From: an uncultured Clostridia bacterium
Lineage (GTDB): Bacteria; Bacillota; Clostridia; Christensenellales; CAG-917
Assembly: GCA_934277615.1 (NCBI GenBank)
Contig: CAKQUV010000001.1
Coordinates: forward strand, 121,035 to 185,034
Length of the DNA: 64,000 bases
Direction: 5' to 3'
Each line of letters starts with the position of its first letter. The first letter of the stretch is position 1. This document shows positions 18,264 through 47,172 of the stretch, in pieces. A program made the position numbers and the translations under genes. The notes beneath the pieces were generated by a model, which was not told the origin of the DNA, did not search any database, and saw only the letters and a list, made by a program, of their open reading frames with translations.

Positions 18264-18390
18264 AAAAAACGCGATAAACAGATGAAGAACAAGAAAGGAC
18301 TGTTCGCACGGCAACCCTAATTTACTTTGCGTAAATGAGTTGACGGGCGGACAGTCCTGCCGAAGTTGTTCGCTGTTTAGCGCGTTTTTT
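18264..18390 (-). other. Conserved ~125-nt compound hairpin element (copy 1), terminator-like
   Basis: It starts 2 nt after the stop of the small ORF. A 17/18-bp basal stem is flanked by an A-run and a T-run. The internal blocks cgaacaacttcggcag and ctttcttgttcttcat are shared with 28921-29044. Confidence 0.45.
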
Positions 18391-18392
18391 GC

Positions 18393-18524
18393 TTACTTGC
18401 AGTCTTTGCAGTCGGAAACGCCCTTCTTCGCACGAGATTTCGTCGTCTTCTCTACTTTCGGTTCGCCGCAATGGCAGCCTTCGGATTTCTTGGTTTGTTT
18501 GCCGGTTGAATTTGTTTTTGCCAT
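18393..18524 (-). CDS. Unannotated 43-aa lysine-rich CxC...CxxC peptide
   Basis: It is below the ORF-track cutoff. Hand translation gives MAKTNSTGKQTKKSEGCHCGEPKVEKTTKSRAKKGVSDCKDCK. A strong RBS aaggag lies 6 nt before the ATG, and a hairpin element follows. Confidence 0.5.
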   Translation of the reverse strand: MAKTNSTGKQTKKSEGCHCGEPKVEKTTKSRAKKGVSDCKDCK

Positions 18525-20251: not shown

Positions 20252-21472
20252 ATGCTTGAACTATTGATGCCTGCAGGCAATCTCAAAAAACTCAAAACTG
20301 CTTTCCACTTCGGCGCGGACGCCGTGTATATCGGCGGCAAGCAGTTTTCTTTGCGCGCCTTTGCGGACAACTTCACCGAAGAAGAGATGATAGAAGGCAT
20401 AAATTTTGCTCACGCGTTGGGCAAAAAAGTCTATGTTACCGTCAACATTTTTGCCAAAAATTCCGACCTCGAAAAGGCAAAAACTTACTTTGAATTTTTG
20501 CAAAAAATCGGCGCTGACGCAGTGCTTATAAGCGATATAGGTCTTGTAACGCTTTGCAAGGAAGTTGCCCCCAATCTTACGATACACCTCTCCACCCAAG
20601 CCAACACAACCAACCTGCTTGCAGTCAAATTTTGGCAAACCATGGGCGTAAAGCGCGTGGTACTTGCGCGCGAACTCGGCTATGACGAGATACTTGCCAT
20701 TCACAACGCCGTGCCTGATATGGAGTTTGAGGCGTTTGTGCACGGCGCAATGTGCATGAGTTACAGCGGACGTTGCTTGCTATCCTCTTATTTCAGCGAC
20801 CGCAGCGCGAACAGAGGCGCTTGCATACAGCCTTGCCGTTGGGGTTATCGCATCACGGAAACGGAGCGCCACGAGGGCAAACCGCTTGATATCGAGCAAG
20901 ACGAGAGAGGCACGTACTTTATGAACAGTCGCGATTTGCGACTTTTGCGCCACATCCCCGAAATTGCGCAATCCGGCATCGTTTCACTCAAAGTGGAAGG
21001 ACGTATGAAGAGCGAATTTTACGTCGCAACGGTGGCGTGCGCATATCGCAAGGCAATTGACGAGTATTTGTCCACTGGGCGCATTGACGACGTTGATATG
21101 CTTGAAACGCGCCTTGAAACAGTTGCTCATCGCACATATACCGACGCATATTTTGACGGCGACAATCTCAACACCGTATGTATGGACGAGGGGCAATCCG
21201 CAGAAAAATACATCTTCACTGCCGTCGTTCTCGACTATTCGGACGGCATAGTAACGGTCGAAATGCGCAATCGTTTCAGATCGAACGACGTTTTGCGAAT
21301 TCTCTCTCCCGACGAAAACGTTGATGACAAACTTTTCACCATCGGCGAGATAACCGACGTTCAATCGGGCGAAAAAACGGACGACGCAAAACTTGTGCAA
21401 CGCACGTATTCCTTTGCTTGCCCATACGCCGTGCAGAAAGGCGATTTGTTGCTTAAAGACGCCGGTATATAA
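20252..21472 (+). CDS. Peptidase U32 family protein
   Basis: LELLMPAGNLKKLKTAFHFGADAVYIGG and the E..VHGAMCMSYSGRC motif are typical of U32. Confidence 0.85.
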   Translation: MLELLMPAGNLKKLKTAFHFGADAVYIGGKQFSLRAFADNFTEEEMIEGINFAHALGKKVYVTVNIFAKNSDLEKAKTYFEFLQKIGADAVLISDIGLVTLCKEVAPNLTIHLSTQANTTNLLAVKFWQTMGVKRVVLARELGYDEILAIHNAVPDMEFEAFVHGAMCMSYSGRCLLSSYFSDRSANRGACIQPCRWGYRITETERHEGKPLDIEQDERGTYFMNSRDLRLLRHIPEIAQSGIVSLKVEGRMKSEFYVATVACAYRKAIDEYLSTGRIDDVDMLETRLETVAHRTYTDAYFDGDNLNTVCMDEGQSAEKYIFTAVVLDYSDGIVTVEMRNRFRSNDVLRILSPDENVDDKLFTIGEITDVQSGEKTDDAKLVQRTYSFACPYAVQKGDLLLKDAGI

Positions 21473-21521
21473 ACTTTATAATTTAAAATTATTCTGCATT
21501 ATTAAAAACTAAAATCAAAAA

Positions 21522-22068
21522 ATGCAACTTTCCCCCTTCCTCATGGTGTTTGGACTTCGGCGTTTGCGCACCGCAATCCGCCTCGTTCGCTTTGGCTACG
21601 ACACATTCACCGAATGTGTCGCTTAACGCGTCGCGCCCATATTCCGTTCCCCCTCTGCGCAATGCTTGAGGGAACCCACGGAACTGCTCCGCAGGGGGCA
21701 ACACGACGCGATTGACTTCGTAACAATCGCTATTCCGTCGCTTCGCTCCTTACGGCACGCGCATAGACAAGTATCGTTCCCTCATTATGCCACTCGTTCG
21801 CCGATAAAAAGAACAACACTTATCGGCTCACTTGTACTGCACCCACAAGGCTTCCACACACAAAAGACAAGCGAACGATAGCGCAATATATAAGATGAAA
21901 GCGCAGTCTTTTGTGTGAAGGAAAAAAGGAGCACCAAGGCAAAAAGCAAGCAATTGGCACAAGTGACAATTGTGGCTAAAAGCCTTGTGTGTGACGCAAG
22001 CTTGGCGCTCGATGCGGTCGGCGCCTTGCGCCTCCAGCTCCGAATAAGCACATACCGTTTACATATGC
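21522..22068 (-). ncRNA. Candidate structured RNA/repeat family, copy A (with ~170-nt hairpin insertion)
   Basis: Its reverse complement aligns with copies B and C over conserved blocks (gtgccgtaaggagcgaagcgacggaatagcgattg; atatgggcgcgacgcgttaa; gtagccaaagcgaacgaggcggattgcggtgcgcaaacgccgaagtccaaa). Stems differ by compensatory changes. Confidence 0.5.
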
Positions 22069-22115
22069 GTTTCTAATATGTTACATATCTATAATAAATT
22101 ATATTATAATAAACA

Positions 22116-22148
22116 ATAAAAAAGCACGCAATATTGCGTGCTTTTTTA
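22116..22148. terminator. Bidirectional intrinsic terminator
   Basis: Stem gcacgca/tgcgtgc with loop atat, flanked by aataaaaaa and tttttt. It lies downstream of the minus-strand membrane-protein operon. Confidence 0.7.
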
Positions 22149-22167
22149 TTGTTTAAATTGTTTGCAA

Positions 22168-24081
22168 TTAAGCCGTTACAGGCACATCGACGGCATCCGT
22201 TGCAGCAGGTGTTTCGCTGCTCTCGCCGTTTTCGGGAGTTTCGGGATTTTCCGGATTATCCTCCGAGCCGAGTTCCTTTGCAAGCATAATACGGTCGCGA
22301 GAATCTTCCGTTCTCTTACGAGTCTTTTCACCCATATCACGGCATACGCCTGCTGCGATGATGAGCACAACGCCGACTGCGCCGAGCGTGCAGAACCAGT
22401 TGCGCAAAGCCACAACGTTGATAACCGCAAAGAGCAAGTTGTCGCTGTCAACCCACGTTGCTTGCATGTAGCCGAGCATACCATAGGGAGCGTTCATCGA
22501 GAAGAGGTTGATTTCAAGCGCGTCGTCGTCATTGAGGCAAAGACCGATTTGAAGAGCCGAGCCTTGCGTTGCCGCCGCGATGACGTCTGCAAGATCTTCT
22601 TGAACCAAACCGCCGACCGCTTTCACTGCGCCGATTTGATCGAGCACGCCGAGAACCAAGTTGACGATTTCGTTATCGAGAGACGTGATTGCCATAGGAT
22701 CGCCGAGCATATCGAGAACAAGCCAGTTGATGGGGCGCTTTGTGTAGCCGGTGGAGAACATCATCCAACCGTCCTCGTTGTAGCCGTACATATCCTTGAC
22801 GACGTTTCCGTTTTGATCGACAAGCGTACCTTCATAAGGGAACGAACCGCCATTCTTGACATATTCGTCAACCATTGCCTTGTCGTACAATTGATAGAGG
22901 AAGTTGCCGTCGTCGCTATAAACGGTCTTGCCGCTGCCATCGGGATTCTCATAACCGGGTTGCGTATAGCTCCAGCCCTTGTTGAGGATGAGGCGCAACA
23001 CTACGGGGATAGTCATACGTCCGTTGACTTGTGCGTAAAGGAGAAGCGGATCGTCGAACGTGAGATAACCGTCTTGGTTGAAGCTGTTGTAGTTGTCGAT
23101 AAACAATTTCTTCACGCGCGGATTGTTGAAGCCTTCTTTGAGAAAGCCTTCGTATCCGCCGTTATTGGCGTTGAAGTATTTGTAGATATAGTCTGTGATT
23201 GCAAGACCGAGAGCACGTCTTTCAACGCTGTTGCTGAAAGCATAGTCATAGTCGTTGAGGATGTCGAACTTGTAGATGAAATCAAAAAGTTCAATCTTTG
23301 CAGGATTTGCCTTTCTGAGATTTTCGATGGCTTTGTCTATGGTTTCGATGTCCATATAGTTTTCGTACCATTCGTTAAATCTATCTCTAATATACTCGTT
23401 GTCATATTCAAGTCCGGTGCGTTTTACGAGAGTTTTGTAGGAGAAGTCGCCGTTTTCCTTGATTGTCAATGCGCCGGTATCTGCGTCAACTTCAAATTCG
23501 TTGAGGTTGCCGTTGAGCACGTTGTACATAAAGAAATCTCTTTCGAGTTTTGCATTCTTCTCTGCCTGAGCCTCGCCGTTGTAATACAAGTCCTCGCAAT
23601 AGAGAGTGCTTTGCGTTGCCTTTGCGATTACGTCGGGGAAAATATAGGTAAGAATAAGTCCGAACACGCAAGTGAGGCATACAAACGCAATGAGCGTGCG
23701 CACTGTTTGCGAACGGATGCTTCTCTTGGAGTTCTTTCTCGTTACGACAAGCGCAATCGTCATGAATATCACGCCGAAAAGGCCTGCGATAATCACGCCG
23801 ACGAACGGCCAGAAGGAATAGTACGGCACAAGATTGTGGCACTTGATGCCGAGCACGAGCGAGATTATGAAGATTGGCAGATATGCAAGCACATACAGCA
23901 CAATCGACGCCACCGTATACAAAACGGACGTTCTGGATTGGTCGTTTTTGGTGCGTTTGCTTATCGGAAAGGCTTTATCGACCTTTGTTTCTGCGACTTC
24001 TTCATTGTTTTGTTGCGTATCGACGATTTCGTCTTGAACTGCGTTGTTCATTTCTTCAACTGCATTATAATTGTCGCTCAT
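22168..24081 (-). CDS. Large polytopic membrane protein, unknown function (637 aa)
   Basis: It has an acidic N-terminal tail, about 4 TM helices, a ~400-aa extracytoplasmic domain rich in Y/N/D, C-terminal TMs and an acidic PE-rich tail. It sits 1 nt downstream of the 894-aa gene. Confidence 0.7.
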   Translation of the reverse strand: MSDNYNAVEEMNNAVQDEIVDTQQNNEEVAETKVDKAFPISKRTKNDQSRTSVLYTVASIVLYVLAYLPIFIISLVLGIKCHNLVPYYSFWPFVGVIIAGLFGVIFMTIALVVTRKNSKRSIRSQTVRTLIAFVCLTCVFGLILTYIFPDVIAKATQSTLYCEDLYYNGEAQAEKNAKLERDFFMYNVLNGNLNEFEVDADTGALTIKENGDFSYKTLVKRTGLEYDNEYIRDRFNEWYENYMDIETIDKAIENLRKANPAKIELFDFIYKFDILNDYDYAFSNSVERRALGLAITDYIYKYFNANNGGYEGFLKEGFNNPRVKKLFIDNYNSFNQDGYLTFDDPLLLYAQVNGRMTIPVVLRLILNKGWSYTQPGYENPDGSGKTVYSDDGNFLYQLYDKAMVDEYVKNGGSFPYEGTLVDQNGNVVKDMYGYNEDGWMMFSTGYTKRPINWLVLDMLGDPMAITSLDNEIVNLVLGVLDQIGAVKAVGGLVQEDLADVIAAATQGSALQIGLCLNDDDALEINLFSMNAPYGMLGYMQATWVDSDNLLFAVINVVALRNWFCTLGAVGVVLIIAAGVCRDMGEKTRKRTEDSRDRIMLAKELGSEDNPENPETPENGESSETPAATDAVDVPVTA

Positions 24082-24082
24082 A

Positions 24083-26713
24083 TTATTCTACCTCCTTTTG
24101 CGTATTTTCTTCCGCAGGCAAGGCGGTATCCTCCGTGGAGGTTGCGTCTGCGTCTTGCGCGACGTTTTCGTCTTGCAAAACGTTTTTGCCTTTCTTTTTG
24201 TTGCGTTTTTTGCCCTCTTTCACTATAGCGGTGCCGTTTGCGTATTCACGTTCTTTCTCTGCGCATACAAAGCTGAGGAAGTAGAAGAATACCACAAGAC
24301 CGGTGAAGAACATAAGCATATCTCTGAGCGAGAAGAGCGGATACATTCTCGGTTTGTATGAGAGATCAACCTTGACTTGTCTTACCGCGTCGAGAGAAGT
24401 AAGACCGAGCGCGGACGGATACGTGCCTGCGCCGATGGTGTCGCCAACAAGAATAGAACCCATCATTTTTCCGTACGTTTGAGCTTCGTATTGTGCTTTG
24501 TAGAATTTCTTTACCGCTGCGTCCACTTCGCCCATTTCGGGATCGATAAATTCCCAGAACGGTTTGATGAACGGCGATTGATAGAAATACAAACCTTGCA
24601 ATACGTTTACGAGAATAGAGGTTATGTCGATAACGGGTTGATAATAAGCGCTGCCGTCCGCTCTCTTTGCTTCTTTGAAGAGCGGAATTTCAATGCCGCT
24701 GATACTGAGCCCTTTCACCGTTTCACCGTTGACGGTGAGATCCTTGAGTACAAGACCGCCGACAAGTTTGCCAATGGTGTTTTTCACGAGGATATTGTAA
24801 AGGTCGATGCCGAACGTGTTGAGCACGCCGTCAAGAGCCGTGTTGAGGAATTGAGAGAGGTGATCGAGATCAAACGCATAATCGTCCTCGCCGAGGAGCG
24901 CGTTGTCAAAGTCGATATCGAGCAACACGTCGCCGCCCTCTGTAGCTTTGGCGGGGTTGGTGCCCATATTACCCTCTTCGTCCGCTCTTACGAGTGCGAC
25001 GTAAAGGTTGTCTTTCTTTTGTCCGAAGATTTCGCCTTTGTAAATCAACACAAGGCTTGCGTTCTTCAATTCGTAACTGTCGTCAGCGCCGACCAAGGAT
25101 TTGATGAGTCCGCCGAGCGTTGTTCCGCCGACGGTGCTGTTCATATCTGCGCCCATCTCTTTGAGGCTCCAACCTTTTTCAAGTTTGGTAAGTATAGGTG
25201 CAATGATGTTTGCAATGGTCGTTTGCTTGCCGTCAAAGTTGATGGAAATGCTGTTGATAAGAGGGATTTTTTCGCCGAGTTTCTTGACAATTTCGCTTGC
25301 GCCGTAATCACCGCTTGCGTTCTTGTCGAGCAACAAGTCGAAAAGTTGGTTGTCGCCGAGCAATGCGCCCACTTGAGCAACAAGATAATCGAGTCTACCG
25401 TGAGTCAAAGAGAATCTATCTGTGAAATAAACTTCTTGATCGTAATACGCGCTCTCTCTTGCGCTTGCCTCGGACGTGTAATACGTGTCGCGAGTGGCAA
25501 TTGCGTTTTGAATAATCATCGCAACTTCAGAAGCATACGTGTCGGAGGTTACGATTGTTTGAGATTCATAATAGTCCTCGAGGATTTCAAGAACGTTGTA
25601 AAGACTGAATACCCAGCCATCGGACATCAATCCGTTGGGATTGTAAATACCCGTGCCGTAGTCGCCTTCCGTGGTGTTGACGACGCTCACCGTGCCGCCT
25701 GCCGCACCTTCGGGAAGTTCTTTGCCGTCTGCGTCAACGTATACCGTGCCGACGGGCATCAAGTCTTTGGCGTACCATACGTAAACGTATTGACCGTTCT
25801 TTTTGGACGCGCCGACGGTTTCCCATTTGCCTTTCTTTTCGTTGTATTGAACGGTTTTGTAACCTTTCTCTTTATACCAGTAATTGGAATAGGTTTTTCC
25901 GTTGATAACGAGTTTTCCGTCAATCGGTTTGAGCTCGACAAGTTGATTTCTTTCAACGTCGGTAATTCTGCCGTCGCCCGGCTCAATGTTGTTGTTCTTG
26001 TCGGCATTGACTCTGGATTCGCCGGTATTCTCATCGACGGTAAAACTGATATCCACGCCGACTTCGACCATTCCGTCCTCTTCGTCGGAGATGATGTAGC
26101 CGTAAGTTACGGGCTTGTTGGAGATGTTGCCTGCAACACCGCCCTTGTCTTTGCCTTCCATCTCGACGTTGTAGGCTTTTTTGAGCAAGTCGATTTTTTC
26201 AATGAGTTTGGTCGTCTCGTTCTTGCTTGCCGCATTTGAAGAAAGCGTGCGATAGTAGGAAAGTTGCGTTTTGTAATCTGCAACAGTAACGCCGTCTCCG
26301 TATGCCTTCTTTGCGTCGGCTGCGATTTGCTCGATTTGAGATTCAAACACAGCGTCCATAACAAAGCCGGTCAAAAGCATAACGACAAGGCACGTCGCGA
26401 CAACCGCAAACATTCTCACTCTGCTGCTTTTCACCGTTTTTGCAAGGATGATGTGCACAATGGAAATAATCGCCCAAAGAGCAAATGCGATCCAAACGCC
26501 GTAAAGAGCGGGTGCGGTGATGTACGACTCCATTTGCATGAAGAAACCGAGTGCGCTTGTGCTCACCGTGTCGCCCATAAACGGGTCATGACCGAGGAAC
26601 TTGACTGTCGTGAAACACACGGCAACCATAAACAGCGGAAGACCAAGCATATAGAACACGATTTTCAGTGCGCGATACAACTTGACCTTTTGGTACTGTT
26701 GATTTTGGCTCAT
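24083..26713 (-). CDS. Large polytopic membrane protein, unknown function (~876 aa)
   Basis: RBS aaggag precedes M19 (MSQNQQYQKV), placing the start at 26713. It has 4 N-terminal TMs, a ~650-aa extracytoplasmic domain, a C-terminal TM and a lysine-rich then acidic tail. Confidence 0.7.
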   Translation of the reverse strand: MSQNQQYQKVKLYRALKIVFYMLGLPLFMVAVCFTTVKFLGHDPFMGDTVSTSALGFFMQMESYITAPALYGVWIAFALWAIISIVHIILAKTVKSSRVRMFAVVATCLVVMLLTGFVMDAVFESQIEQIAADAKKAYGDGVTVADYKTQLSYYRTLSSNAASKNETTKLIEKIDLLKKAYNVEMEGKDKGGVAGNISNKPVTYGYIISDEEDGMVEVGVDISFTVDENTGESRVNADKNNNIEPGDGRITDVERNQLVELKPIDGKLVINGKTYSNYWYKEKGYKTVQYNEKKGKWETVGASKKNGQYVYVWYAKDLMPVGTVYVDADGKELPEGAAGGTVSVVNTTEGDYGTGIYNPNGLMSDGWVFSLYNVLEILEDYYESQTIVTSDTYASEVAMIIQNAIATRDTYYTSEASARESAYYDQEVYFTDRFSLTHGRLDYLVAQVGALLGDNQLFDLLLDKNASGDYGASEIVKKLGEKIPLINSISINFDGKQTTIANIIAPILTKLEKGWSLKEMGADMNSTVGGTTLGGLIKSLVGADDSYELKNASLVLIYKGEIFGQKKDNLYVALVRADEEGNMGTNPAKATEGGDVLLDIDFDNALLGEDDYAFDLDHLSQFLNTALDGVLNTFGIDLYNILVKNTIGKLVGGLVLKDLTVNGETVKGLSISGIEIPLFKEAKRADGSAYYQPVIDITSILVNVLQGLYFYQSPFIKPFWEFIDPEMGEVDAAVKKFYKAQYEAQTYGKMMGSILVGDTIGAGTYPSALGLTSLDAVRQVKVDLSYKPRMYPLFSLRDMLMFFTGLVVFFYFLSFVCAEKEREYANGTAIVKEGKKRNKKKGKNVLQDENVAQDADATSTEDTALPAEENTQKEVE

Positions 26714-26940
26714 AATGTTCTCCTTAACTTCTCGTGCCCACGCCCACGTATGTAAGCGTGCGCACAATATATATAATATTACTTTTCTATCATATCATAA
26801 CAAAAATCATATTTCAATACGATTTTTACAATTTTTTCTCGACACAACAAGTTGTGGTCGCACATAACGCCGTGCGAATATGTGGCTTTTATTACACTTC
26901 ACTTGTTTGAAAACGTGCAAAAAGCGTCGTCCGCGAACTT

Positions 26941-27365
26941 GTGCGCAGGCTTATTAACGGACACTCGTTCAAGGCGTTCTTATACACGAAATGTGCCTAT
27001 TCGGAGCTTCGAGCCGCAGGGCGGCGAGCGGATAAGTGCCGAGCTTGACGATTAGTACAAGTGAGCCAACGAGTGTTGTTCTTTTCGTTGGCGAACGAGT
27101 GGCACAACAAGTGAACGATACTCTTCTATGCGAGTGCCGTAAGGAGCGAAGCGACGGAATAGCGATTGCTACGGAGTCAATCGCGTCTTGCCCCTCTTGC
27201 GAACGATGTTTTGCTTAAGTAGAGTAATGATGTGTATTTGAGCAATATGGGCGCGACGCGTTAAGCAACCCGTCTGGTAGACGAGTTGTAGCCAAAGCGA
27301 ACGAGGCGGATTGCGGTGCGCAAACGCCGAAGTCCAAAGCCCGAAGGGAAGGGGTGATGTTGCAT
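26941..27365 (+). ncRNA. Candidate structured RNA/repeat family, copy B
   Basis: Same conserved blocks as copies A and C. The hairpin gccaacga-GTGTTGTTCTTT-tcgttggc reads gccgataa-GTGTTGTTCTTT-ttatcggc in copy A, which is 3 compensatory pairs. Confidence 0.5.
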
Positions 27366-27575
27366 TAGAGGAGTTACTGCGCACTCATTCAAAAAGACTA
27401 TTCTATCGGCGCAATTATTAATAATACAAACCGCATTTTTTGTGTGCATATAATTCGTTTTCGCGTTTTAATCTTAAAACTCGCGCAAAATGATTTTACT
27501 TTAGATATTGCTTTTAGTTCGATTGCAGTATATTATAAAAATACACAGGCGAAAGCCACATTTCAGGAGGAAATT

Positions 27576-28922
27576 ATGTCATATATCAGTGAAGTCATTG
27601 AACAGACCGAATTGAAAAACCCGGGACAACCCCAGTTTATGCAAACGGTTAAAGAGGTTCTTACGTCTCTCGCACCCGCTGTCGAACAACACGAAGAAAC
27701 TATGAGAAAAAACGTTATTCTCGAGCGTCTTGTAGAGCCCGACAGACAAATTATGTTCCGCGTGCCTTGGATGGACGACAACGGCGTATATCACGTCAAT
27801 CGCGGTTTCCGCGTTCAATTCAACAACGCAATCGGACCGTACAAAGGCGGTTTGCGCTTCCAAAAAGACGTCAACCTCGACGCAATGAAGTTCCTCGGCT
27901 TTGAGCAAACTTTCAAAAACTCCCTCACTTCCCTTCCTATGGGCGGTGCAAAGGGCGGCGCAGACTTTGATCCCACCGGCAAGAGCGACGCTGAAATTAT
28001 GCGTTTCTGCCAATCGTTTATGAACGAGCTTTATCGCCACATCGGCCCCAACATGGACGTTCCAGCAGGCGACATGGGCGTTGGTGGAAGAGAAATCGGT
28101 TATCTCTTCGGTCAATACAAGAAAATCGTCGGTTCTTACGAAAACGGCGTTCTCACCGGCAAAGGTTTGAGCTACGGCGGCTCCCTCATTCGCCCCGAAG
28201 CAACAGGATACGGCGCAACGTACTTCCTTGACGAAGTGCTCAAACACGAAGGCGAACAACTCAAGGGCAAGACCTTCTGCCTCAGCGGTTTCGGCAACGT
28301 CGCTTGGGGCGCGACCGCAAAAATCACCGAGCTCGGCGGCAAGGTCGTTACACTCTCCGGTCCCGACGGATATATCTACGATCCGGACGGCGTAAGCGGT
28401 GAAAAGATTGATTATATGCTCGAAATGCGTGCGTCTAACCGCAACAAAGTCAAAGATTACGCAGACAAATACGGTTGTGAATTCGTCGCAGGCAAGAAGC
28501 CTTGGGGCAACGTCAAAGCAGACGTCTATATGCCCTGCGCAAGACAAAACGAAGTCCTCCTCGAAGACGCAGAGGCTATGGTCAAACTCGGAGTTCCCGT
28601 GCTCAACGAAGTTTCCAACATGCCCACCACCAACGAGGCAATCGCATACTTGCAAGATCACGGCGTTCTCATCACTCCGTCCAAAGCGGTCAACGCAGGC
28701 GGCGTAGCGACCAGCGGTCTTGAAATGTCTCAAAACAGCGAACGTCTTTCCTGGACGGCAGAAGAAGTCGATGCAAAACTCAAACAAATCATGAAAGGCA
28801 TCCACAACCAAATCTGCGACGCTCTCAACTCGTACGGCCTCGACTACAACCTCGTCAAAGGTGCAAACCTTGCTGGTTTCAAGAAGGTTTACGAGGCAAT
28901 GCTCGCTCAAGGCATCAACTAA
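27576..28922 (+). CDS. gdhA: NADP-specific glutamate dehydrogenase
   Basis: RBS aggagg plus ATG 27576. Motifs include GPYKGGLRF and LPMGGAKGG. Length is 448 aa. Confidence 0.95.
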   Translation: MSYISEVIEQTELKNPGQPQFMQTVKEVLTSLAPAVEQHEETMRKNVILERLVEPDRQIMFRVPWMDDNGVYHVNRGFRVQFNNAIGPYKGGLRFQKDVNLDAMKFLGFEQTFKNSLTSLPMGGAKGGADFDPTGKSDAEIMRFCQSFMNELYRHIGPNMDVPAGDMGVGGREIGYLFGQYKKIVGSYENGVLTGKGLSYGGSLIRPEATGYGATYFLDEVLKHEGEQLKGKTFCLSGFGNVAWGATAKITELGGKVVTLSGPDGYIYDPDGVSGEKIDYMLEMRASNRNKVKDYADKYGCEFVAGKKPWGNVKADVYMPCARQNEVLLEDAEAMVKLGVPVLNEVSNMPTTNEAIAYLQDHGVLITPSKAVNAGGVATSGLEMSQNSERLSWTAEEVDAKLKQIMKGIHNQICDALNSYGLDYNLVKGANLAGFKKVYEAMLAQGIN

Positions 28923-29044
28923 AAGGCTGTAAAATAGCGAATAACTGCGGCAGCACCCCATGATTTGCAAATCACGTACGACAGTACGTTGGGTTTGCAC
29001 CTCACGGGGTGCTTTCTTGTTCTTCATCTATTTTACAGCCTTTT
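28921..29044 (+). other. Conserved ~125-nt compound hairpin element (copy 2), terminator-like
   Basis: It begins within the gdhA stop codon. It has a perfect 17-bp basal stem aaaaggctgtaaaatag/ctattttacagcctttt. The inner stem is cacccc/ggggtg, where copy 1 has gactgt/acagtc. The ctttcttgttcttcat block is identical in both copies. Confidence 0.45.
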
Positions 29045-29061
29045 AGAATTTATGTTTTATG

Positions 29062-29468
29062 GGTGCACCTATTAACGGAATATGCCTCTTCGGAGACGGA
29101 ACTCGAGCCGCAGGGCGGCGAGCTAGTCGAGCGCCAAGCTTGACGAAAAGTACAAGCGACTGCGCCGTGTTGTTGCGTAGCTGGCGCACAAAGCGCAGTG
29201 GCATAATGAGGGAAATGTCCCTATCTATGCGCGTGCCGTAAGGAGCGAAGCGACGGAATAGCGATTGGTACGAAGTCAATCGCGTCGCGTGTCCCCCTGC
29301 GGAGCAGTTCCGTGGGTTCCCTCAAACGAAGTGCAGAGGGGGAATGGAATATGGGCGCGACGCGTTAAACGACACATTCGGCGAATGTGTCGTAGCCAAA
29401 GCGAACGAGGCGGATTGCGGTGCGCAAACGCCGAAGTCCAAACACCGTGAGGAAGGGGGAAATTGCAT
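29062..29468 (+). ncRNA. Candidate structured RNA/repeat family, copy C
   Basis: It is closest to copy A in its conserved blocks. It lies between the convergent 3' ends of gdhA and guaB. Confidence 0.5.
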
Positions 29469-29492
29469 TTAAAATATTTACAGCAACTTCGC

Positions 29493-30989
29493 TCAGTAAT
29501 TCTTATTTTTTATCATAACGTCGTGCGCGCCGCCTTCGACGATGCTTGTTGCGGACACGAGCGTGAGTTTTGCGTCTTTGTGCAAGTCCTCGATTGTCGT
29601 AACGCCGCAGTTGCACATGGTGGATTTGACTTTATAAAGGCTCTTGCGCACGTTGTCGGAGAGTTTGCCTGCATACGGAACGTAAGAATCGACGCCCTCT
29701 TCAAACGAAAGTCCGCTCTTTCCGCCGAGGTCGTAACGTTGCCAGTTTCTCGCGCGGTTGCTGCCCTCGCCCCAATATTCTTTGACGTAGTTGCCGTTGA
29801 TATTGAGTTTTGCCGTGGGGCTTTCGTCAAATCTTGCAAAATATCTGCCAAGCATAATGAAATCCGCGCCCATAGCAAGCGCAAGCGTCATATGGTAGTC
29901 TTGCACGATGCCGCCGTCCGAGCAAATGGGGATATATATGCCCGTTTCCTTGTAGTATTCATCGCGCGCCGCCGCCACTTCGATAAGTGCGGTTGCCTGA
30001 CCTCTGCCTATGCCCTTCGTTTCACGCGTAATACAGATAGAGCCGCCGCCTATGCCCACTTTGACAAAATCAGCGCCTGCTTTTGCCAAAAACAAAAATC
30101 CGTCTCTGTCCACCACGTTGCCTGCTCCTACAAGCACGCTATCGCCGTATTTCGACCTTATAAAATCAATGGTTTTTTGCTGCCAGACGGTATATCCCTC
30201 GCTGCTGTCTATACAAAGCACGTCCGCGCCTGCCTCGACAAGGAGAGGAACTCTCTTTTCGTAATCGAGGGTGTTTATACCTGCGCCGACGAGATATCTC
30301 TTTTCGCCATCAAGCACTTCGAGCGGATTTTCTTTGTGCTGCTCATAGTCCTTTCTGAACACGAAATATAGCAATCTGTCCTCACCGTCCACGATAGGCA
30401 ACGTGTTGAGCTTGTTATCCCAAATAATATCGTTTGCCTCGGAAAGCGTTACGCTCGACGGCGCAACCACAAGTTTTTCTCTCGGAGTCATAAACGAGGA
30501 CACTTTGTCATCGAGCGACATTCTCGACACACGGTAATCCCTGCTTGTAACCATACCCAAAAGCTTGCCGTTTGACGTGCCGTCCGACGTTATGGCAATG
30601 GTATTGTGTCCGTTTCTCTCGACGAGATCCAGTACGTCTTTTAGCGTATCGTCGGGAGTAAGGTTGCTGTCGCTCACCACAAAGCCCGCTTTGTATGCTT
30701 TGACTCTACGCACCATATTCGCCTCGTTCTCGGGAGATTGCGAGCCGTATATAAAAGAAATTCCGCCCTCTTTGGCAAGCGCAATAGCCATTTTGTCATC
30801 GCTGACCGATTGCATAATTGCCGAAACGAGCGGAATATTCAACGTGATTTTGGGTGCTTCGCCTTTCTTGAACTTGACGAGCGGAGTTTGCAAACTGACG
30901 TTTGCAGGAATGCATTTTTCCGACGTATATCCCGGAATAAGCAGATACTCGCTGAAAGTCCTCGAGGGTTCTTGAGAATACTTTGCCAT
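29493..30989 (-). CDS. guaB: IMP dehydrogenase
   Basis: It has the catalytic loop [11 protein letters not shown], a tandem CBS insert and a C-terminal flap. Length is 498 aa. Confidence 0.95.
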
Positions 30990-43487: not shown

Positions 43488-43904
43488 AAAACAATTTAAT
43501 GATTCTAATCGGGGTATAGCGCAGTTTGGTTTGCGATAAGCAACGACCGCAAACAAAGTTGTTCCGTATCCGACATCGTCACCTGTCGCGTTGTGTCGAA
43601 AACGCAAGACCTGACGGAAATGCGCGAGCGCGCTCCCAAACATAAGGACACGCCGTCGAATAAAGGCAGTAATGATACAAACTTAATAATTCTAATCGGG
43701 GTATAGCGCAGTTTGGTTTGCGATAAGCAACGACCGCAAACAAAGTTGTTCCGTATCCGACATCGTCACCTGTCGCGTTGTGTCGAAAACGCAAGACCTG
43801 ACGGAAATGCGCGAGCGCGCTCCCAAACATAAGGACACGCCGTCGAATAAAGGCAGTAATGATACAAACTTAATAATTCTAATCGGGGTATAGCGCAGTT
43901 TGGT
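43488..43904 (+). repeat. Tandem 187-bp duplication carrying the first 21 nt of tRNA-Pro
   Basis: Units 43510-43696 and 43697-43883 are identical by eye. Each begins cggggtatagcgcagtttggt, as does the real tRNA at 43884. A partial diverged copy lies upstream. Confidence 0.9.
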
Positions 43905-43960
43905 AGCGCGCTTGACTGGGGGTCAAGAGGCCATGGGTTCAAGTCCCGTTACTCCGACCA
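43884..43960 (+). tRNA. tRNA-Pro (anticodon GGG)
   Basis: Hand-folded cloverleaf: acceptor cggggta/tactccg, D arm gcgc-agtttggta-gcgc, anticodon arm cttga-CUGGGGG-tcaag, T arm atggg-ttcaagt-cccgt. CCA is encoded. Length is 77 nt. Confidence 0.9.
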
Positions 43961-44262: not shown

Positions 44263-44339
44263 GTTTCCGTAGCTCAGCAGGATAGAGCGTTCGCCTCCTA
44301 AGCGAAAGGCCGTGGGTTCGACTCCCGCCGGGAACACCA
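44263..44339 (+). tRNA. tRNA-Arg (anticodon CCU)
   Basis: Hand-folded cloverleaf: acceptor gtttccg/cgggaac, D arm gctc-agcaggata-gagc, anticodon arm ttcgc-CUCCUAA-gcgaa, T arm gtggg-ttcgact-cccgc. CCA is encoded. Length is 77 nt. Confidence 0.9.
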
Positions 44340-44726
44340 ATCACACCCCCACAGGGGTGTGTTTGTTTTTCTTGCGGTAGTTGTGCGCCTTGCGCACGTG
44401 CTTCGCACTCGACCCCACTTCCGTGGCTGACGCTTCGCTATTCCGTCATTCCATTCCTTACGACTCCCGCCGGGAACACCAATCACACCCCCACAGGGGT
44501 GTGTTTGTTTTTCTTGCGGTAGTTGTGCGCCTTGCGCACGTGCTTCGCACTCGACCCCACTTCCGTGGCTGACGCTTCGCTATTCCGTCATTCCATTCCT
44601 TACGACTCCCGCCGGGAACACCAATCACACCCCCACAGGGGTGTGTTTGTTTTTCTTGCGGTAGTTGTGTGCTTTGCGCACATGCTTTACACCCGCCCCC
44701 TCTTCCGTGGCTGACGCTTCGCTATT
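44319..44726 (+). repeat. Tandem 142-bp repeats, each starting with the last 21 nt of tRNA-Arg plus its terminator
   Basis: cgactcccgccgggaacacca occurs at 44319, 44461 and 44603. Each is followed by the hairpin cacaccccc-aca-ggggtgtg plus a T-run. Units 1 and 2 are identical. Unit 3 is diverged and is cut off at ~44726 by the stop codon of the first island gene. Confidence 0.9.
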
Positions 44727-47172
44727 CAACCTCATCCAACATTTTTGTAAGCTCTTCTATACAGTTGTCATACTCGTTATTGTCTGGATCAATTCTTTTT
44801 AACCAACTATACATTAATATGCCTTTTTCAATAGGAATACGATGTCTGTCAACGTAAGACAAAATGCGCCAAGCTTCGGCTACATCTTTTATGTCGTCGA
44901 TCATTTCCAACGTTATGTGTGCTTTTCCGTCTTCGGTTGGTGCCATTGTGGCGTTTAAACATTTCTCAATGATGGGAATCATTACGTTTATTGCTCTCAA
45001 ATAATGCTCTCGAATATCGTATAATTCCTCTTCTGTCATTTCGAGATCGTTTGAGTTTTTAGATTCAGCTCTGTCCATCTGTTTTTCTAACAGTGTGGAC
45101 GCAATCGCCATATTCCCCTTGTATATACTTCTTCTACATTCGGGGAAATCGGCTTTAGACAGAACCTTGTTTAGTAAATCGATAGATTCTTTATAACACG
45201 ATAGTTCTTCCTCGATTTTTCCTTGTGCATGATTTAATTTTGCTATGTGACTATAACAATTCGCTTTATCGCTATAATCTTCCACAGCATCAGACTGTTT
45301 CAATACTTGCTCAATGTAGCCAATCGCCTCGGAAAACCATGCTTTGGCATCTTCAAACTCATTTAGCTTTGTGCACTCAATCCCTGCTCTGAAGCAAACA
45401 ACAAAAGCCACTCTATAATACGGCAGTTTTTGCTTGTCTATTAAAAAACGCTTAATCAACTCCATTGCCTTGTCATAGTAATCTAAGCTTGCTTCGCCAT
45501 TATAATCTGCGATGGCGCCGAGATTACTATACATTATTGCCATTACATATGCATTATCTTCTTTATTTCGCACAGACTCTCCGTGCGAATGATTTTGTAT
45601 TGAGAAAGCCGATTCTATATAGTCTTTAGCATATTCGAGATCTCCTGCCTTTAAAAACAGCGTCCCCAGATTATTATAAACTTCTGCCAAATAATCCCCT
45701 GCCGACTCAATATGATTTGAATAGCAGCGTTCCATTAAATCTTTTGCTTTTCTATAAGATTTTGCGGCAGCGGACATCTCGTTTTCAGTACTATAGCAAA
45801 ATGCCAATTTGTTATAACACAGGTTATAATAATAAAGAGTTTTTCCATTCAATTTACTTTCATCTATTAACGATAAAAGTTTTATCGCCTCTTCAAGTTT
45901 TTCTATCGCTTGATTCAATCTATAAATCTCTATCAACAAACTTGCACAATTGCAAATAGATCCGACATAATCCAAATACTCATCTTGATTATCCGGTGAG
46001 GCTTTATCTTTTTTTATTTCTATAATCGTGTTTTGGTATGCAATTGCTTTATCGTAATCAATAGAGACGCCATGCCCCCTATGATAAATGTCAACAAGCT
46101 TTTCTATTGCAGGTAAATAATTATATTCCGAACACTTTGTTAATATCGTTATCCCTTTTTCCGTATTAACCTCTACGTCTATACCGAATAAATACGCCAA
46201 TCCAATAAGGTATTTATGTTCAGGTAAAAAGTCGTTGTTTTTTACATTTAAATAAGACAAGGCGTCTATCAGTGAACTGTCGAAAACAGGTTTGTCGTGA
46301 ACGTTTACCAATTCGGGAATATCATCAAACGCATCAAACACCGATTGTTTATTCGTTTCCACCAACTCTACCGGGAATATGTATTTACCTCTCGCTTTTG
46401 CAATAGGATACTCTGTGGTAATAATATAATTGAGTTCATTGACTACGTTTGGAGTGATCACCACGGAAAAAACATCGCATTTGTCGATCTCCTGCTCTAT
46501 TTCATAATTAAAGTTTTCTCCGGGCGTTAAAAATTCGTCATACCAAACCCCGACATCTTCAAGTTTATCGTTTTCATGCATCAACTTTATGAATTCATTG
46601 GCGTATTTTCTGTCTTTTTTTCTATAACTAACAAACACATGCGCATCGAATTCTGATTTTATTTGTTCGATTGTTTCATCTTCCAATAAAACAGATTTTA
46701 AAAATCTTTCCAGCTTCTTGGAAAATGGAATTGAAGTATTGTCCAAGTCAAATCTGGACATGAATTGGACATTGCCAAAAATCTTATTATATGATTCTAA
46801 AATATCTGTCTCTTGTAAAATCGGTAAAATCGGGATACGTTTTTCTCTTATAAATACAAATTCTTTAGAATTTATCAAATTGCTATCACTTAAAAATCTA
46901 TTTGTAATCGGAATCACAATTAGTTGCATTTGTCCCAACGTCAATTCCAAATCATCCTCTATATATTCGCTCGAATCCGGCTTATACCAAATAGAACAAT
47001 TTGCAACATCCAGAATATCCCTGCATATTTCGTCAAAAAACAATTTATAGTCTTCAGAGTGAGCGAAAAAATAAACCCTAGCCTTCCCCGTTGGCAAACT
47101 ATCCCCTCGAGTTTTGCATAATAATTGCATAATACTTAGCCCCTTTATCGTTAAATTAGCATAACGATTCAA
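44722..47172 (-). CDS. Tandem TIR-like domains fused to Sel1/TPR repeats (816 aa)
   Basis: The first TIR-like module is RVYFFAHSEDY...CSIWYKPD...LIVIPIT. The second is canonical: HVFVSYRKKDRKYANEF...VGVWYDEFLTPGENF...DVFSVVITPNVVNE. Sel1-like repeats follow (IYHRGHGVSIDYDKAIAY), then a long TPR-like region. The gene is AT-rich. An alternative start is at 47130. Confidence 0.75.
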   Translation of the reverse strand: MNRYANLTIKGLSIMQLLCKTRGDSLPTGKARVYFFAHSEDYKLFFDEICRDILDVANCSIWYKPDSSEYIEDDLELTLGQMQLIVIPITNRFLSDSNLINSKEFVFIREKRIPILPILQETDILESYNKIFGNVQFMSRFDLDNTSIPFSKKLERFLKSVLLEDETIEQIKSEFDAHVFVSYRKKDRKYANEFIKLMHENDKLEDVGVWYDEFLTPGENFNYEIEQEIDKCDVFSVVITPNVVNELNYIITTEYPIAKARGKYIFPVELVETNKQSVFDAFDDIPELVNVHDKPVFDSSLIDALSYLNVKNNDFLPEHKYLIGLAYLFGIDVEVNTEKGITILTKCSEYNYLPAIEKLVDIYHRGHGVSIDYDKAIAYQNTIIEIKKDKASPDNQDEYLDYVGSICNCASLLIEIYRLNQAIEKLEEAIKLLSLIDESKLNGKTLYYYNLCYNKLAFCYSTENEMSAAAKSYRKAKDLMERCYSNHIESAGDYLAEVYNNLGTLFLKAGDLEYAKDYIESAFSIQNHSHGESVRNKEDNAYVMAIMYSNLGAIADYNGEASLDYYDKAMELIKRFLIDKQKLPYYRVAFVVCFRAGIECTKLNEFEDAKAWFSEAIGYIEQVLKQSDAVEDYSDKANCYSHIAKLNHAQGKIEEELSCYKESIDLLNKVLSKADFPECRRSIYKGNMAIASTLLEKQMDRAESKNSNDLEMTEEELYDIREHYLRAINVMIPIIEKCLNATMAPTEDGKAHITLEMIDDIKDVAEAWRILSYVDRHRIPIEKGILMYSWLKRIDPDNNEYDNCIEELTKMLDEVE

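Follow-up and report, generated by a model that had tools for sequence, protein, structure and literature searches.

The 64,000-nt stretch analysed here (hereafter the window), from an uncultured Clostridia bacterium of the Christensenellales (contig CAKQUV010000001.1, positions 121,035 to 185,034), holds three copies, A, B and C, of a structured intergenic repeat whose wider family we refer to by the working name X. On balance, we favour reading X as a lineage-specific, high-copy and modular family of non-coding structured interspersed elements, non-autonomous and probably mobile or recombining. Among described systems it fits best, as an elaborate member, into the bcr1/BOX class of structured interspersed repeats. 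A first-pass annotation, made from the letters of the window alone, had taken the family for one of three copies; it is in fact a high-copy family, with about 230 copies catalogued in Christensenellales-like human-gut genomes and metagenomes.

Window copies and their fold

The three copies in the window are the following:

21520–22059, minus strand: copy A, long form with an extra inserted subdomain (540 nt; nhmmer limits 21519–22058)
26985–27368, plus strand: copy B, long-form core (384 nt; nhmmer limits 26986–27368)
29074–29471, plus strand: copy C, long-form core (398 nt; nhmmer limits 29075–29471)

Alignment and nhmmer place the repeats at essentially the coordinates first proposed, except that the ends of copy B had been drawn too short: this copy reaches further, with a 5' leader at 26888–26984 and a tail to 27390. 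All three copies are intergenic, as had been claimed. They share invariant runs of 35–51 nt with copy-variable hairpins in between, and two 29-mers from the invariant blocks each give three exact matches in the window, against none expected from 100 shuffles. Together with the alignment, these matches show that A, B and C are real repeats and not the product of chance. The long conserved blocks described in the first pass are indeed invariant among A, B and C, but they are mostly optional modules (the GTAAGGAGCGAAGCGACGGAATAGCGATTG sub-module and the 3' module) without which most members of the family exist.

The stem exchanges reported between the blocks are also seen. The stem GCCAACGA/TCGTTGGC of copy B (27065–27092) is matched in copy A by the compensated GCCGATAA/TTATCGGC (21800–21827), GCCGC/GCGGC of B and C by the compensated GGCGC/GCGCC of A, and CGACACATTC/GAATGTGTCG of C and A by the different hairpin stem CAACCCGTC/GACGAGTTG of B. 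These helices still covary after homologues have been added. The self-complementary insertion of copy A is likewise real, with a size of ~159 nt (21839–21997) instead of the ~170 nt first estimated. No reading frame is shared on either strand across 28 full copies, in agreement with the earlier remark that the open reading frames (ORFs) are not conserved; this test and the covariation bear out the description of a non-coding structured element with compensatory stem changes.

Two independent subtype alignments of domain 1 yielded the same core helices with RNAalifold. In the covariation alignment of 17 sequences (A4), paired cells reach 95.8% and 10 of 24 pairs are changed on both sides (for example CG 9/UA 8; CG 11/AU 3/GC 3; CG 9/GC 5/UA 3). 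The covariation score was 0.348, compared with 0.155 ± 0.015 after shuffling, where 0 of 500 shuffles attained the observed value, and with at most 0.089 in slid-partner controls. The best covarying hairpin of the family core is helix P2 of domain 1 (GAGCCGCAGGGCGGCGAGC; 27011–27029 on the plus strand, and also 29105–29123). The type I P4 stem occurs as several Watson-Crick variants around a similar loop, and hairpin P7 of the 3' module has 5 of its 10 pairs changed on both sides. Beside P7, a GGCG..UUGC-loop-GCAA..CGCC hairpin is invariant save for the length of its loop, so that the indel lies in the loop. A de novo mutual-information map was dominated by cassette-type linkage and proved uninformative.

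The helices include 38 G.U cells versus 2 A.C cells, and copy C has a minimum free energy of -162.2 kcal/mol (z -3.65) in the sense orientation versus -142.5 kcal/mol in the antisense one. Since G.U exceeds A.C and the sense energy is the lower, the fold belongs to the sense strand. A favoured single strand would also suit an element acting at the DNA level, whose single-stranded fold is the target of an HUH-type enzyme (resembling REP/RAYT or IS200/IS605 PATE systems) or serves as a single-strand origin, the RNA being irrelevant. Such an element would be in keeping with copies that stand behind terminators without sigma-70 promoters, and with genomes rich in small palindromic intergenic repeats and BIME-like mosaics; X also contains GCGAAGC/CGAAG mini-hairpin motifs, which are very stable in DNA. 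We nevertheless consider it improbable. About 9% of the paired cells are G.U, some of them conserved, which is typical of RNA, and a multi-junction fold of 290–550 nt is far above any known single-stranded DNA recognition hairpin. Moreover, the hairpins of the 5' flank vary in sequence between copies, unlike transposase-bound hairpins, no fixed target tetra- or pentanucleotide is found, and both orientations of the element occur inside the window, within 8 kb.

Modular anatomy of the family

X elements range from 290 to 550 nt, the common form being ~290 nt (260–300 nt). Sampling by the 5' domain gave 148 chains, 95 of them short-form and 11 long-form; the window copies belong to this minority, and most of the long conserved blocks are accessory. 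The core of ~290 nt comprises a 5' domain closed by AUGUGCC/GGCAUAA and a second domain closed by a C/U-rich stretch that pairs with AAGGGGG. In the short form, the linker UCUAUGYGAGUGCCGA joins domain 1 to an irregular hairpin cassette, of which there are two alternative types; a small terminal hairpin comes next, and then AAGGGGK, ~8 nt and AUUUAGAG; a tail ending in ACUCUUGUAGAGGAAGAA often continues it. The long form adds to the core a 49-nt sub-module (GUAAGGAGCGAAGCGACGGAAUAGCGAUUG-loop-CAAUCGCGUC) and a 127-nt 3' module. The optional structured modules (the 49-nt GUAAGGAGCGAAGCGACGGAAUAGCG sub-module, the 127-nt 3' module and the 159-nt insert) occupy fixed positions. In the window, these and the flanking parts of copy B are located as follows:

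27139–27187 (plus), 29238–29286 (plus), 21705–21753 (minus): optional sub-module GTAAGGAGCGAAGCGACGGAATAGCGATTG-loop-CAATCGCGTC, missing from short-form copies
27241–27367 (plus), 29345–29470 (plus), 21520–21646 (minus): optional 3' module, with GGGCGCGACGCG, hairpin P7, the invariant GTAGCCAAAGCGAACGAGGCGGATTGC..GCAAACGCC hairpin, and a small terminal hairpin with AAGGGG
21839–21997, minus strand: optional self-complementary subdomain of ~159 nt after helix P3 of copy A (z -3.4)
26888–26984, plus strand: 5' leader of copy B, a degenerate mini-unit and then the M box
26929–26950, plus strand: mini-unit hairpin GTCCGC..GCAGGC in this leader
26956–26984, plus strand: M box AACGGACACTCGTTCAAGGCGTTCTTATA in this leader, with the geometry of an extracytoplasmic function (ECF) sigma promoter, AAC-N16-CGTTC
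27367–27390, plus strand: 3' tail of copy B, tail type 2 (AGAGGAGTTACTGCGCACTCATTC)

The 159-nt insert has a folding energy of -47.3 kcal/mol (z -3.4) and recurs nearly unchanged at loci L006, L018, L043, L059, L081 and L099. The 3' module is also seen behind unrelated 5' parts, and the 49-nt sub-module inside a different repeat family, T (see below). Upstream, conservation reaches ~30 nt beyond the element (consensus aacGaa.ACTtATTCaagGCGTaCTTATa followed by AACGGaATGTGC); downstream it ends directly after GAGGAAGAA. The first ~22 nt of the element itself recur, in degenerate form, as the M box, which, judging from its sequence, may be an ECF-sigma-type promoter, the leader agreeing better with an AAC-N16-CGT pattern of that type than with a sigma-70 promoter; as the leader duplicates the 5' end of the element in this way, the spacer of the putative promoter is conserved too. 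The M box is preceded by one of several alternatives: a mini-unit in which a hairpin is joined to the 5' 30 nt of the element, AT-rich repeats followed by a GGGTGGG..CCCACCC hairpin, a module with CAAACCGCAATT..GCTTGCTTGGTG, or the Gut-1 RNA. In some copies the terminal hairpin unit is repeated once more in tandem; mini-units occur in truncated form, and both ends can be partly duplicated in tandem.

Several roles for individual parts of the element were considered and rejected. Frames of 11–12 codons in the 3' tail are alike in two copies, but start, frame and stop are not kept in others, which speaks against a small ORF or peptide. The palindromic 3' segment is not a significant candidate for a dimerisation site (mean half-length 2.99 versus 2.90 ± 0.085 shuffled). 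The word UUGUAGAG, tried as a repeated protein-binding site, occurs 52 times in sense and never in antisense in 99 copies; only 9 of these hold two or more, so it is essentially a tail motif. The density of GGA is near expectation, contrary to a CsrA-type sponge, and the UAAGGAG word of a possible anti-Shine-Dalgarno mimic is not kept in the T-element version of the sub-module.

Copy number, turnover and gene context

A 19-mer from the 3' block is present in more than 104 stretches among the matches listed for species-representative genomes. The genuine matches, confirmed by nhmmer, come from 'Christensenella sp. UBA...' metagenome-assembled genomes (MAGs), the uncultured Clostridiales UMGS1042, UMGS1170 and UMGS1366, CAG:238, Hadza MAGs and a few bins under other names, while matches in GC-rich soil taxa are due to chance. 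The window is itself part of a Hadza human-gut assembly, from a MAG of a spore-forming member of the Clostridia. Single assemblies give at least 10–11 matches, and many matches lie at contig ends, from which it follows that the repeat breaks assemblies. A second scan, seeded with the 5' domain, yielded 120 loci in human-gut metagenomes, all of them human-gut where the record names the source. Beyond the anchoring copy, the flanking DNA that was fetched holds 16–35 extra copies per Mb; extrapolated to a genome of 2–3 Mb, this suggests roughly 35–100 copies per genome. Nothing similar to X was found in the phage and plasmid collections. IMG/VR gave a single 19-mer match (L108 55–73; IMGVR_UViG_3300015159_000032), at the very start of the contig, which is probably host DNA at a prophage or contig boundary and not phage-borne. 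With no matches in the collections and this sole match at a contig end, carriage by phages or plasmids was rejected.

The distribution of copies is not kept between close relatives. L039 has a short-form copy where L049, with flanks 92–94% identical, has 20 nt, and reciprocally 43 nt in L039 stand against a long-form copy in L049. L085 and L088 likewise show reciprocal filled and empty sites, 1.4 kb apart, between flanks 92–94% identical. In addition, L032 holds a copy where L092 has a small helix-turn-helix gene, and L077 and L102 carry X in opposite orientations at one site. In the metagenome loci, no filled/empty pairs were found beyond the four known sites.

Copies that do stay in place nevertheless change their modules. 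Copy A has an orthologue at the same locus in L006, in which the 159-nt insert is 96% identical while the flanking genes are 84–90% identical. P2 is GGCGC/GCGCC in copy A versus GCCGC/GCGGC in the orthologue, P4 is of type I versus type II, the middle block is present versus absent, and the terminal hairpins are of different types. These differences indicate that copies exchange modules, probably by gene conversion, and that the family consensus evolves slowly. Part of the signal that the first-pass annotation attributed to selection on conserved blocks may be due to the same gene conversion between copies.

A further link to RNA is provided by Gut-1 (RF01706), which was described in 2010 from the human gut only and rated by its discoverers as certainly RNA (PMC2864571). 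Gut-1 has 42 nhmmer matches in 31 loci of these Christensenellales-like genomes, and in 9–12 of the 42 it lies within 150 nt upstream of X on the same strand; examples are L088 1938–2015, L200 1407–1485, L085 5694–6022 (three tandem copies) and L043 5683–5760. The window holds X but no Gut-1. Gut-1 shares its genomes and habitat with X and is likewise a structured repeat between genes, sometimes in tandem and with no assigned function; unlike X, which does not match its model, it is a 77-nt array of small hairpins spaced by AGUGAWAU.

These observations bear on the possibility that X is an ordinary host non-coding RNA (ncRNA) gene family, in which trans-acting paralogues (a protein sponge, a scaffold or an RNA-only assembly) have been retained for a role in the cell and duplicated without any mobility of their own. 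The fusion of some copies to Gut-1, a genuine ncRNA according to its discoverers (PMC2864571), speaks for such a family. So do the complex fold with its conserved unpaired blocks, the conserved geometry of the promoter-like leader, the retention of copy A in two species (insert 96% versus flanking genes 84–90% identical) and a co-orientation with neighbours that resembles ordinary genes. On the other hand, host genes of this kind would have to number an estimated 35–100 per genome at 290–550 nt each, and we know of no small-RNA paralogue family that reaches this. Reciprocal presence and absence between genomes 92–95% identical, truncated mini-units, partial tandem end duplications and the many copies without a leader also argue against it, and we regard it as unlikely.

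All catalogued copies are intergenic, mostly after gene 3' ends and terminators. Between tandem genes, 22 copies are co-oriented with both neighbours versus 8 anti-oriented; 12 copies lie in convergent and 6 in divergent contexts. The neighbouring proteins form 377 clusters, none dominant, and the ten most recurrent are housekeeping genes or artefacts, the former including an ABC transporter, a histidine kinase, Spo0A, GAPDH and folate genes. In the window, copy A lies 3' of the intrinsic terminator belonging to a 637-aa gene, and a peptidase U32 gene is convergent with it. Copy B sits between the divergent 894-aa gene and gdhA, whose start is 76 nt downstream on the same strand. Copy C stands behind a terminator-like T element that follows gdhA, and converges on the gene for IMP dehydrogenase (IMPDH). 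Two genes separate A from B:

22168–24081, minus strand: 637 aa, no Pfam match at E<=0.001
24083–26767, minus strand: 894 aa (876 aa in the public assembly), no Pfam match at E<=0.001

The label 'giant membrane protein' given to this pair in the first pass is not confirmed by these searches.

The position of copy B, 76 nt upstream of gdhA on the same strand, raises the question of a cis-regulatory leader (riboswitch, T-box or attenuator) for the downstream gene. The 3' Shine-Dalgarno-like AAGGGGG, which pairs with the upstream C/U-rich stretch, would fit this idea. The tests run here contradict it: the downstream gene is convergent or on the opposite strand for A, C and about 40% of all copies, the downstream genes share no function, and no conserved expression platform or terminator is present. 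A leader is thus extremely improbable.

An orphan guide or scaffold RNA of a transposon-encoded RNA-guided enzyme (IscB, TnpB or IS110), with the protein elsewhere in the genome, was the second suggestion of the first-pass annotation. HEARO was such a multi-copy orphan motif before IscB was understood. Copies of X are also multi-copy, structured and located at polymorphic sites, and the flanks beside their conserved ends are variable, as guides would be. This explanation is contradicted as well, and we hold it to be very improbable. No IscB, TnpB, IS110, transposase, nuclease, reverse transcriptase or other recurrent gene adjoins any of the about 230 copies. With gaps of up to 3.5 kb allowed, no separated halves with an ORF-sized gap were found and no chain exceeds 700 nt, which discards an autonomous version with an ORF between 5' and 3' parts. 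Rfam gives no match to HEARO or the IS605-orfB motifs even at E<=10, nor to HEARO at E<=1 in L043 2300–5900. Internal variation is confined to a few discrete cassettes with no hypervariable guide, and nothing in guide RNAs corresponds to the optional modules or to the partial duplication of ends in tandem. For the individual systems, no IscB (RuvC-HNH) lies downstream of any copy, as an omega-RNA would have it; TnpB reRNA and IS200/IS605 ends, PATEs included, are discarded by the lack of tnpB-like neighbours, IS200/IS605-type end hairpins and any target or junction motif, and by flank hairpins that differ between copies; and an IS110 bridge RNA by the few cassette types and the lack of a DEDD recombinase neighbour.

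Two recurrent neighbours were examined as possible enzymes and rejected. A 471-aa 'neighbour' is a spurious antisense ORF, and a 466-aa one (L014 and L170) is secreted or membrane-anchored and has tandem paralogues. These ~465-aa paralogues (L014 1536–2933 and 3603–4994; L170 1267–2658 and 3317–4714; L022 469–1854) have no Pfam domain. They possess a signal peptide and, at the C-terminus, a membrane anchor whose tail is rich in lysine and glutamate. Copies of X are found next to their genes as well as between them, which suggests that copies are carried along in segmental duplications.

At least four or five repeat families are mixed, mosaic-like, in the intergenic regions of the carrier genomes. 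Of these, the terminator-like T repeat, not part of X, is present in the window at 28924–29028 (plus strand), directly upstream of copy C, and at about 18281–18395 (minus strand). T elements consist of a long conserved hairpin, GCGAATAACTGYG-[stem]-CAA(A/C)TCA..ACG...GT..TTAGGGTTG-[stem']-CTTTCTTGTTCTTCATC, found directly after stop codons at many loci (for instance L057, L072 and L076) and with no Rfam match; T behaves like a conserved intrinsic terminator, comparable to pneumococcal SPRITE. The X sub-module (GTAAGGAACGAAGTGACGGAATAGCGATTG-loop-CAATCGCGTC) occurs inside T elements on the antisense strand (L006 1840–1900, L014 2953–3013, L044 4687–4747, L095 4134–4190, L102 5109–5167 and L107 1873–1924), and is therefore an independent plug-in module common to two repeat families.

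Other repeats are associated with tRNA genes of the window. At 43493–43960, two 187-nt tandem units precede tRNA-Pro(GGG), each opening with a copy of the 5' part of the tRNA (CGGGGTATAGCGCAGTTTGGT). At 44263–44744, three 142-nt tandem units follow tRNA-Arg(CCT); units 1 and 2 close with a copy of the 3' part of the tRNA (GACTCCCGCCGGGAACACCA), like an att site, and over 36 nt match the reverse-complemented X sub-module at 78% identity, while unit 3 is degenerate at its close. Finally, AT-rich (TTAATAAT)n runs, followed by a GGGTGGG..CCCACCC or GGAAGGC..GCCTTA hairpin and then GAAAC/GAAT, form a recurrent intergenic module (L085 2240–2290, L088 4230–4290, and upstream of X in L035, L042 and L074).

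Place among known elements

The first-pass annotation could not assign the repeat to a known RNA family, and Rfam 15 has no model for it either. At the gathering threshold, the whole window matches two tRNAs only and nothing at X; at E<=10, the region 21000–30000 adds terminator look-alikes (22089–22201) and two weak chance matches over T (28924–29041). Judged by their models, ROOL, GOLLD, OLE, raiA, HEARO, the IS605-orfB motifs, group I and II introns, T-box, riboswitches, tmRNA, RNase P, SRP and 6S are thereby set aside. Neither Rfam 15 nor the literature searched holds a named description of the family; it may already be included, without a name of its own, as a cluster of some bulk resource such as PMC8040213.

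The closest counterparts are bcr1 of Bacillus cereus and BOX of Streptococcus pneumoniae, which are multi-copy, intergenic, strain-variable and transcribed, and have no transposase of their own (PMC3184786). BOX is a modular array of simple hairpin modules (67–637 nt), and bcr1 a two-stem cruciform of ~155 bp with 5-bp direct repeats and base-pair compensatory changes (PMC3184786). X is likewise multi-copy, intergenic and variable between close relatives, without a transposase of its own; its fold is maintained by compensatory substitutions, as in bcr1, and its modularity recalls BOX. It differs in its multi-helix two-domain fold of 290–550 nt, its long conserved unpaired blocks and its plug-in modules, shows no sequence similarity to either, and has no target duplication or terminal inverted repeats detected in four filled/empty comparisons. 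Membership in the miniature inverted-repeat transposable elements was rejected on similar grounds: there is no target-site duplication, and terminal inverted repeats were not found across the family, the 5' end AACGGTATGTGC and tail type 1 GTACACGCCGTT being partly complementary in some copies only. REP/BIME and SPRITE share with X the niche after gene 3' ends, the repeat mosaics and strand-specific hairpins (PMC3184786). REPs are, on the other hand, palindromes of ~25–35 nt, whereas X is ten times larger and not a simple palindrome.

Larger RNAs resemble X less. HEARO/IscB omega-RNA and TnpB reRNA are large, structured, multi-copy RNAs linked to mobile DNA that often occur without their protein gene; X differs from them, as described, in model, neighbouring genes and ends. 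ORF-less class C group II introns are also multi-copy, ~400 nt long, placed just after terminators and oriented with the upstream gene. X has no domain V, no Rfam match (RF00029, D1–D4) at E<=10, no GUGYG...AY boundaries and no intron-encoded protein anywhere. ROOL, GOLLD and OLE occur in one or few copies per genome, often in prophages or beside specific genes, whereas X has an estimated 35–100 copies, is absent from the phage collection searched and has one contig-end match in IMG/VR. They are ornate non-coding RNAs of several hundred nt found by comparative genomics (PMC12286853).

Taken together, the evidence leads us to propose that X would be transcribed, either from the ECF-sigma-like promoter of the conserved 5' leader, where present, or by read-through; that a trans-acting factor would recognise the fold of the RNA; and that the element would spread and homogenise as a non-autonomous mobile or recombining unit much as bcr1 and BOX do, although its fold is far more elaborate. 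A role of the fold as RNA is suggested by the use of G.U pairs, by how complex the fold is, by the leader that resembles a promoter and by the Gut-1 fusion; mobility, by the polymorphism, the copy number and the mini-units that retain the ends.

A number of observations weigh against this proposal. At L039/L049 and L085/L088 no target-site duplication or terminal inverted repeats are seen, and the filled/empty junctions are ragged with no common motif at the four sites, so the apparent mobility could instead be deletion or recombination. The helices form a partial fold model, in which P1 (AUGUGCC/GGCAUAA) competes with GCAUA/UAUGY and P3 (CUYGAC/GUACRAG) with CGAG/CUUG. Variation is mostly between linked, discrete cassette types; this linkage and the relatedness of the copies inflate mutual information and the shuffle controls, and gene conversion could account for the invariant blocks with no need of selection. 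None of the three window copies has a predicted sigma-70 promoter in front of it, and copies A and C lack the M-box leader and stand directly behind strong terminators, so that a function at the RNA level would need read-through. Conserved words served as seeds for the two collection scans, so that the copies seen are a biased sample.

A more far-reaching interpretation, which we consider decidedly unlikely, is that X is the RNA component of a new kind of system: either an element that moves by means of its own structured RNA (with a trans-encoded enzyme or as a ribozyme), or an abundant RNA-only or ribonucleoprotein assembly of Christensenellales-like gut bacteria with Gut-1 as a further module.

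Following up structured multi-copy RNAs that had no evident partner has paid off in the past: HEARO was eventually explained as the guide RNA that serves IscB, from which Cas9 descends. X is large, ornate, modular and polymorphic, has no Rfam family, and resides in an abundant uncultured lineage of the human gut. It fragments short-read assemblies, many copies lying at contig ends, and thus poses a practical problem for MAG quality. It also gives the long-orphan Gut-1 a host lineage, a genomic partner and a larger composite element. If its RNA is expressed, X would lend itself readily to structure determination and to a search for whatever protein or mechanism copies it.

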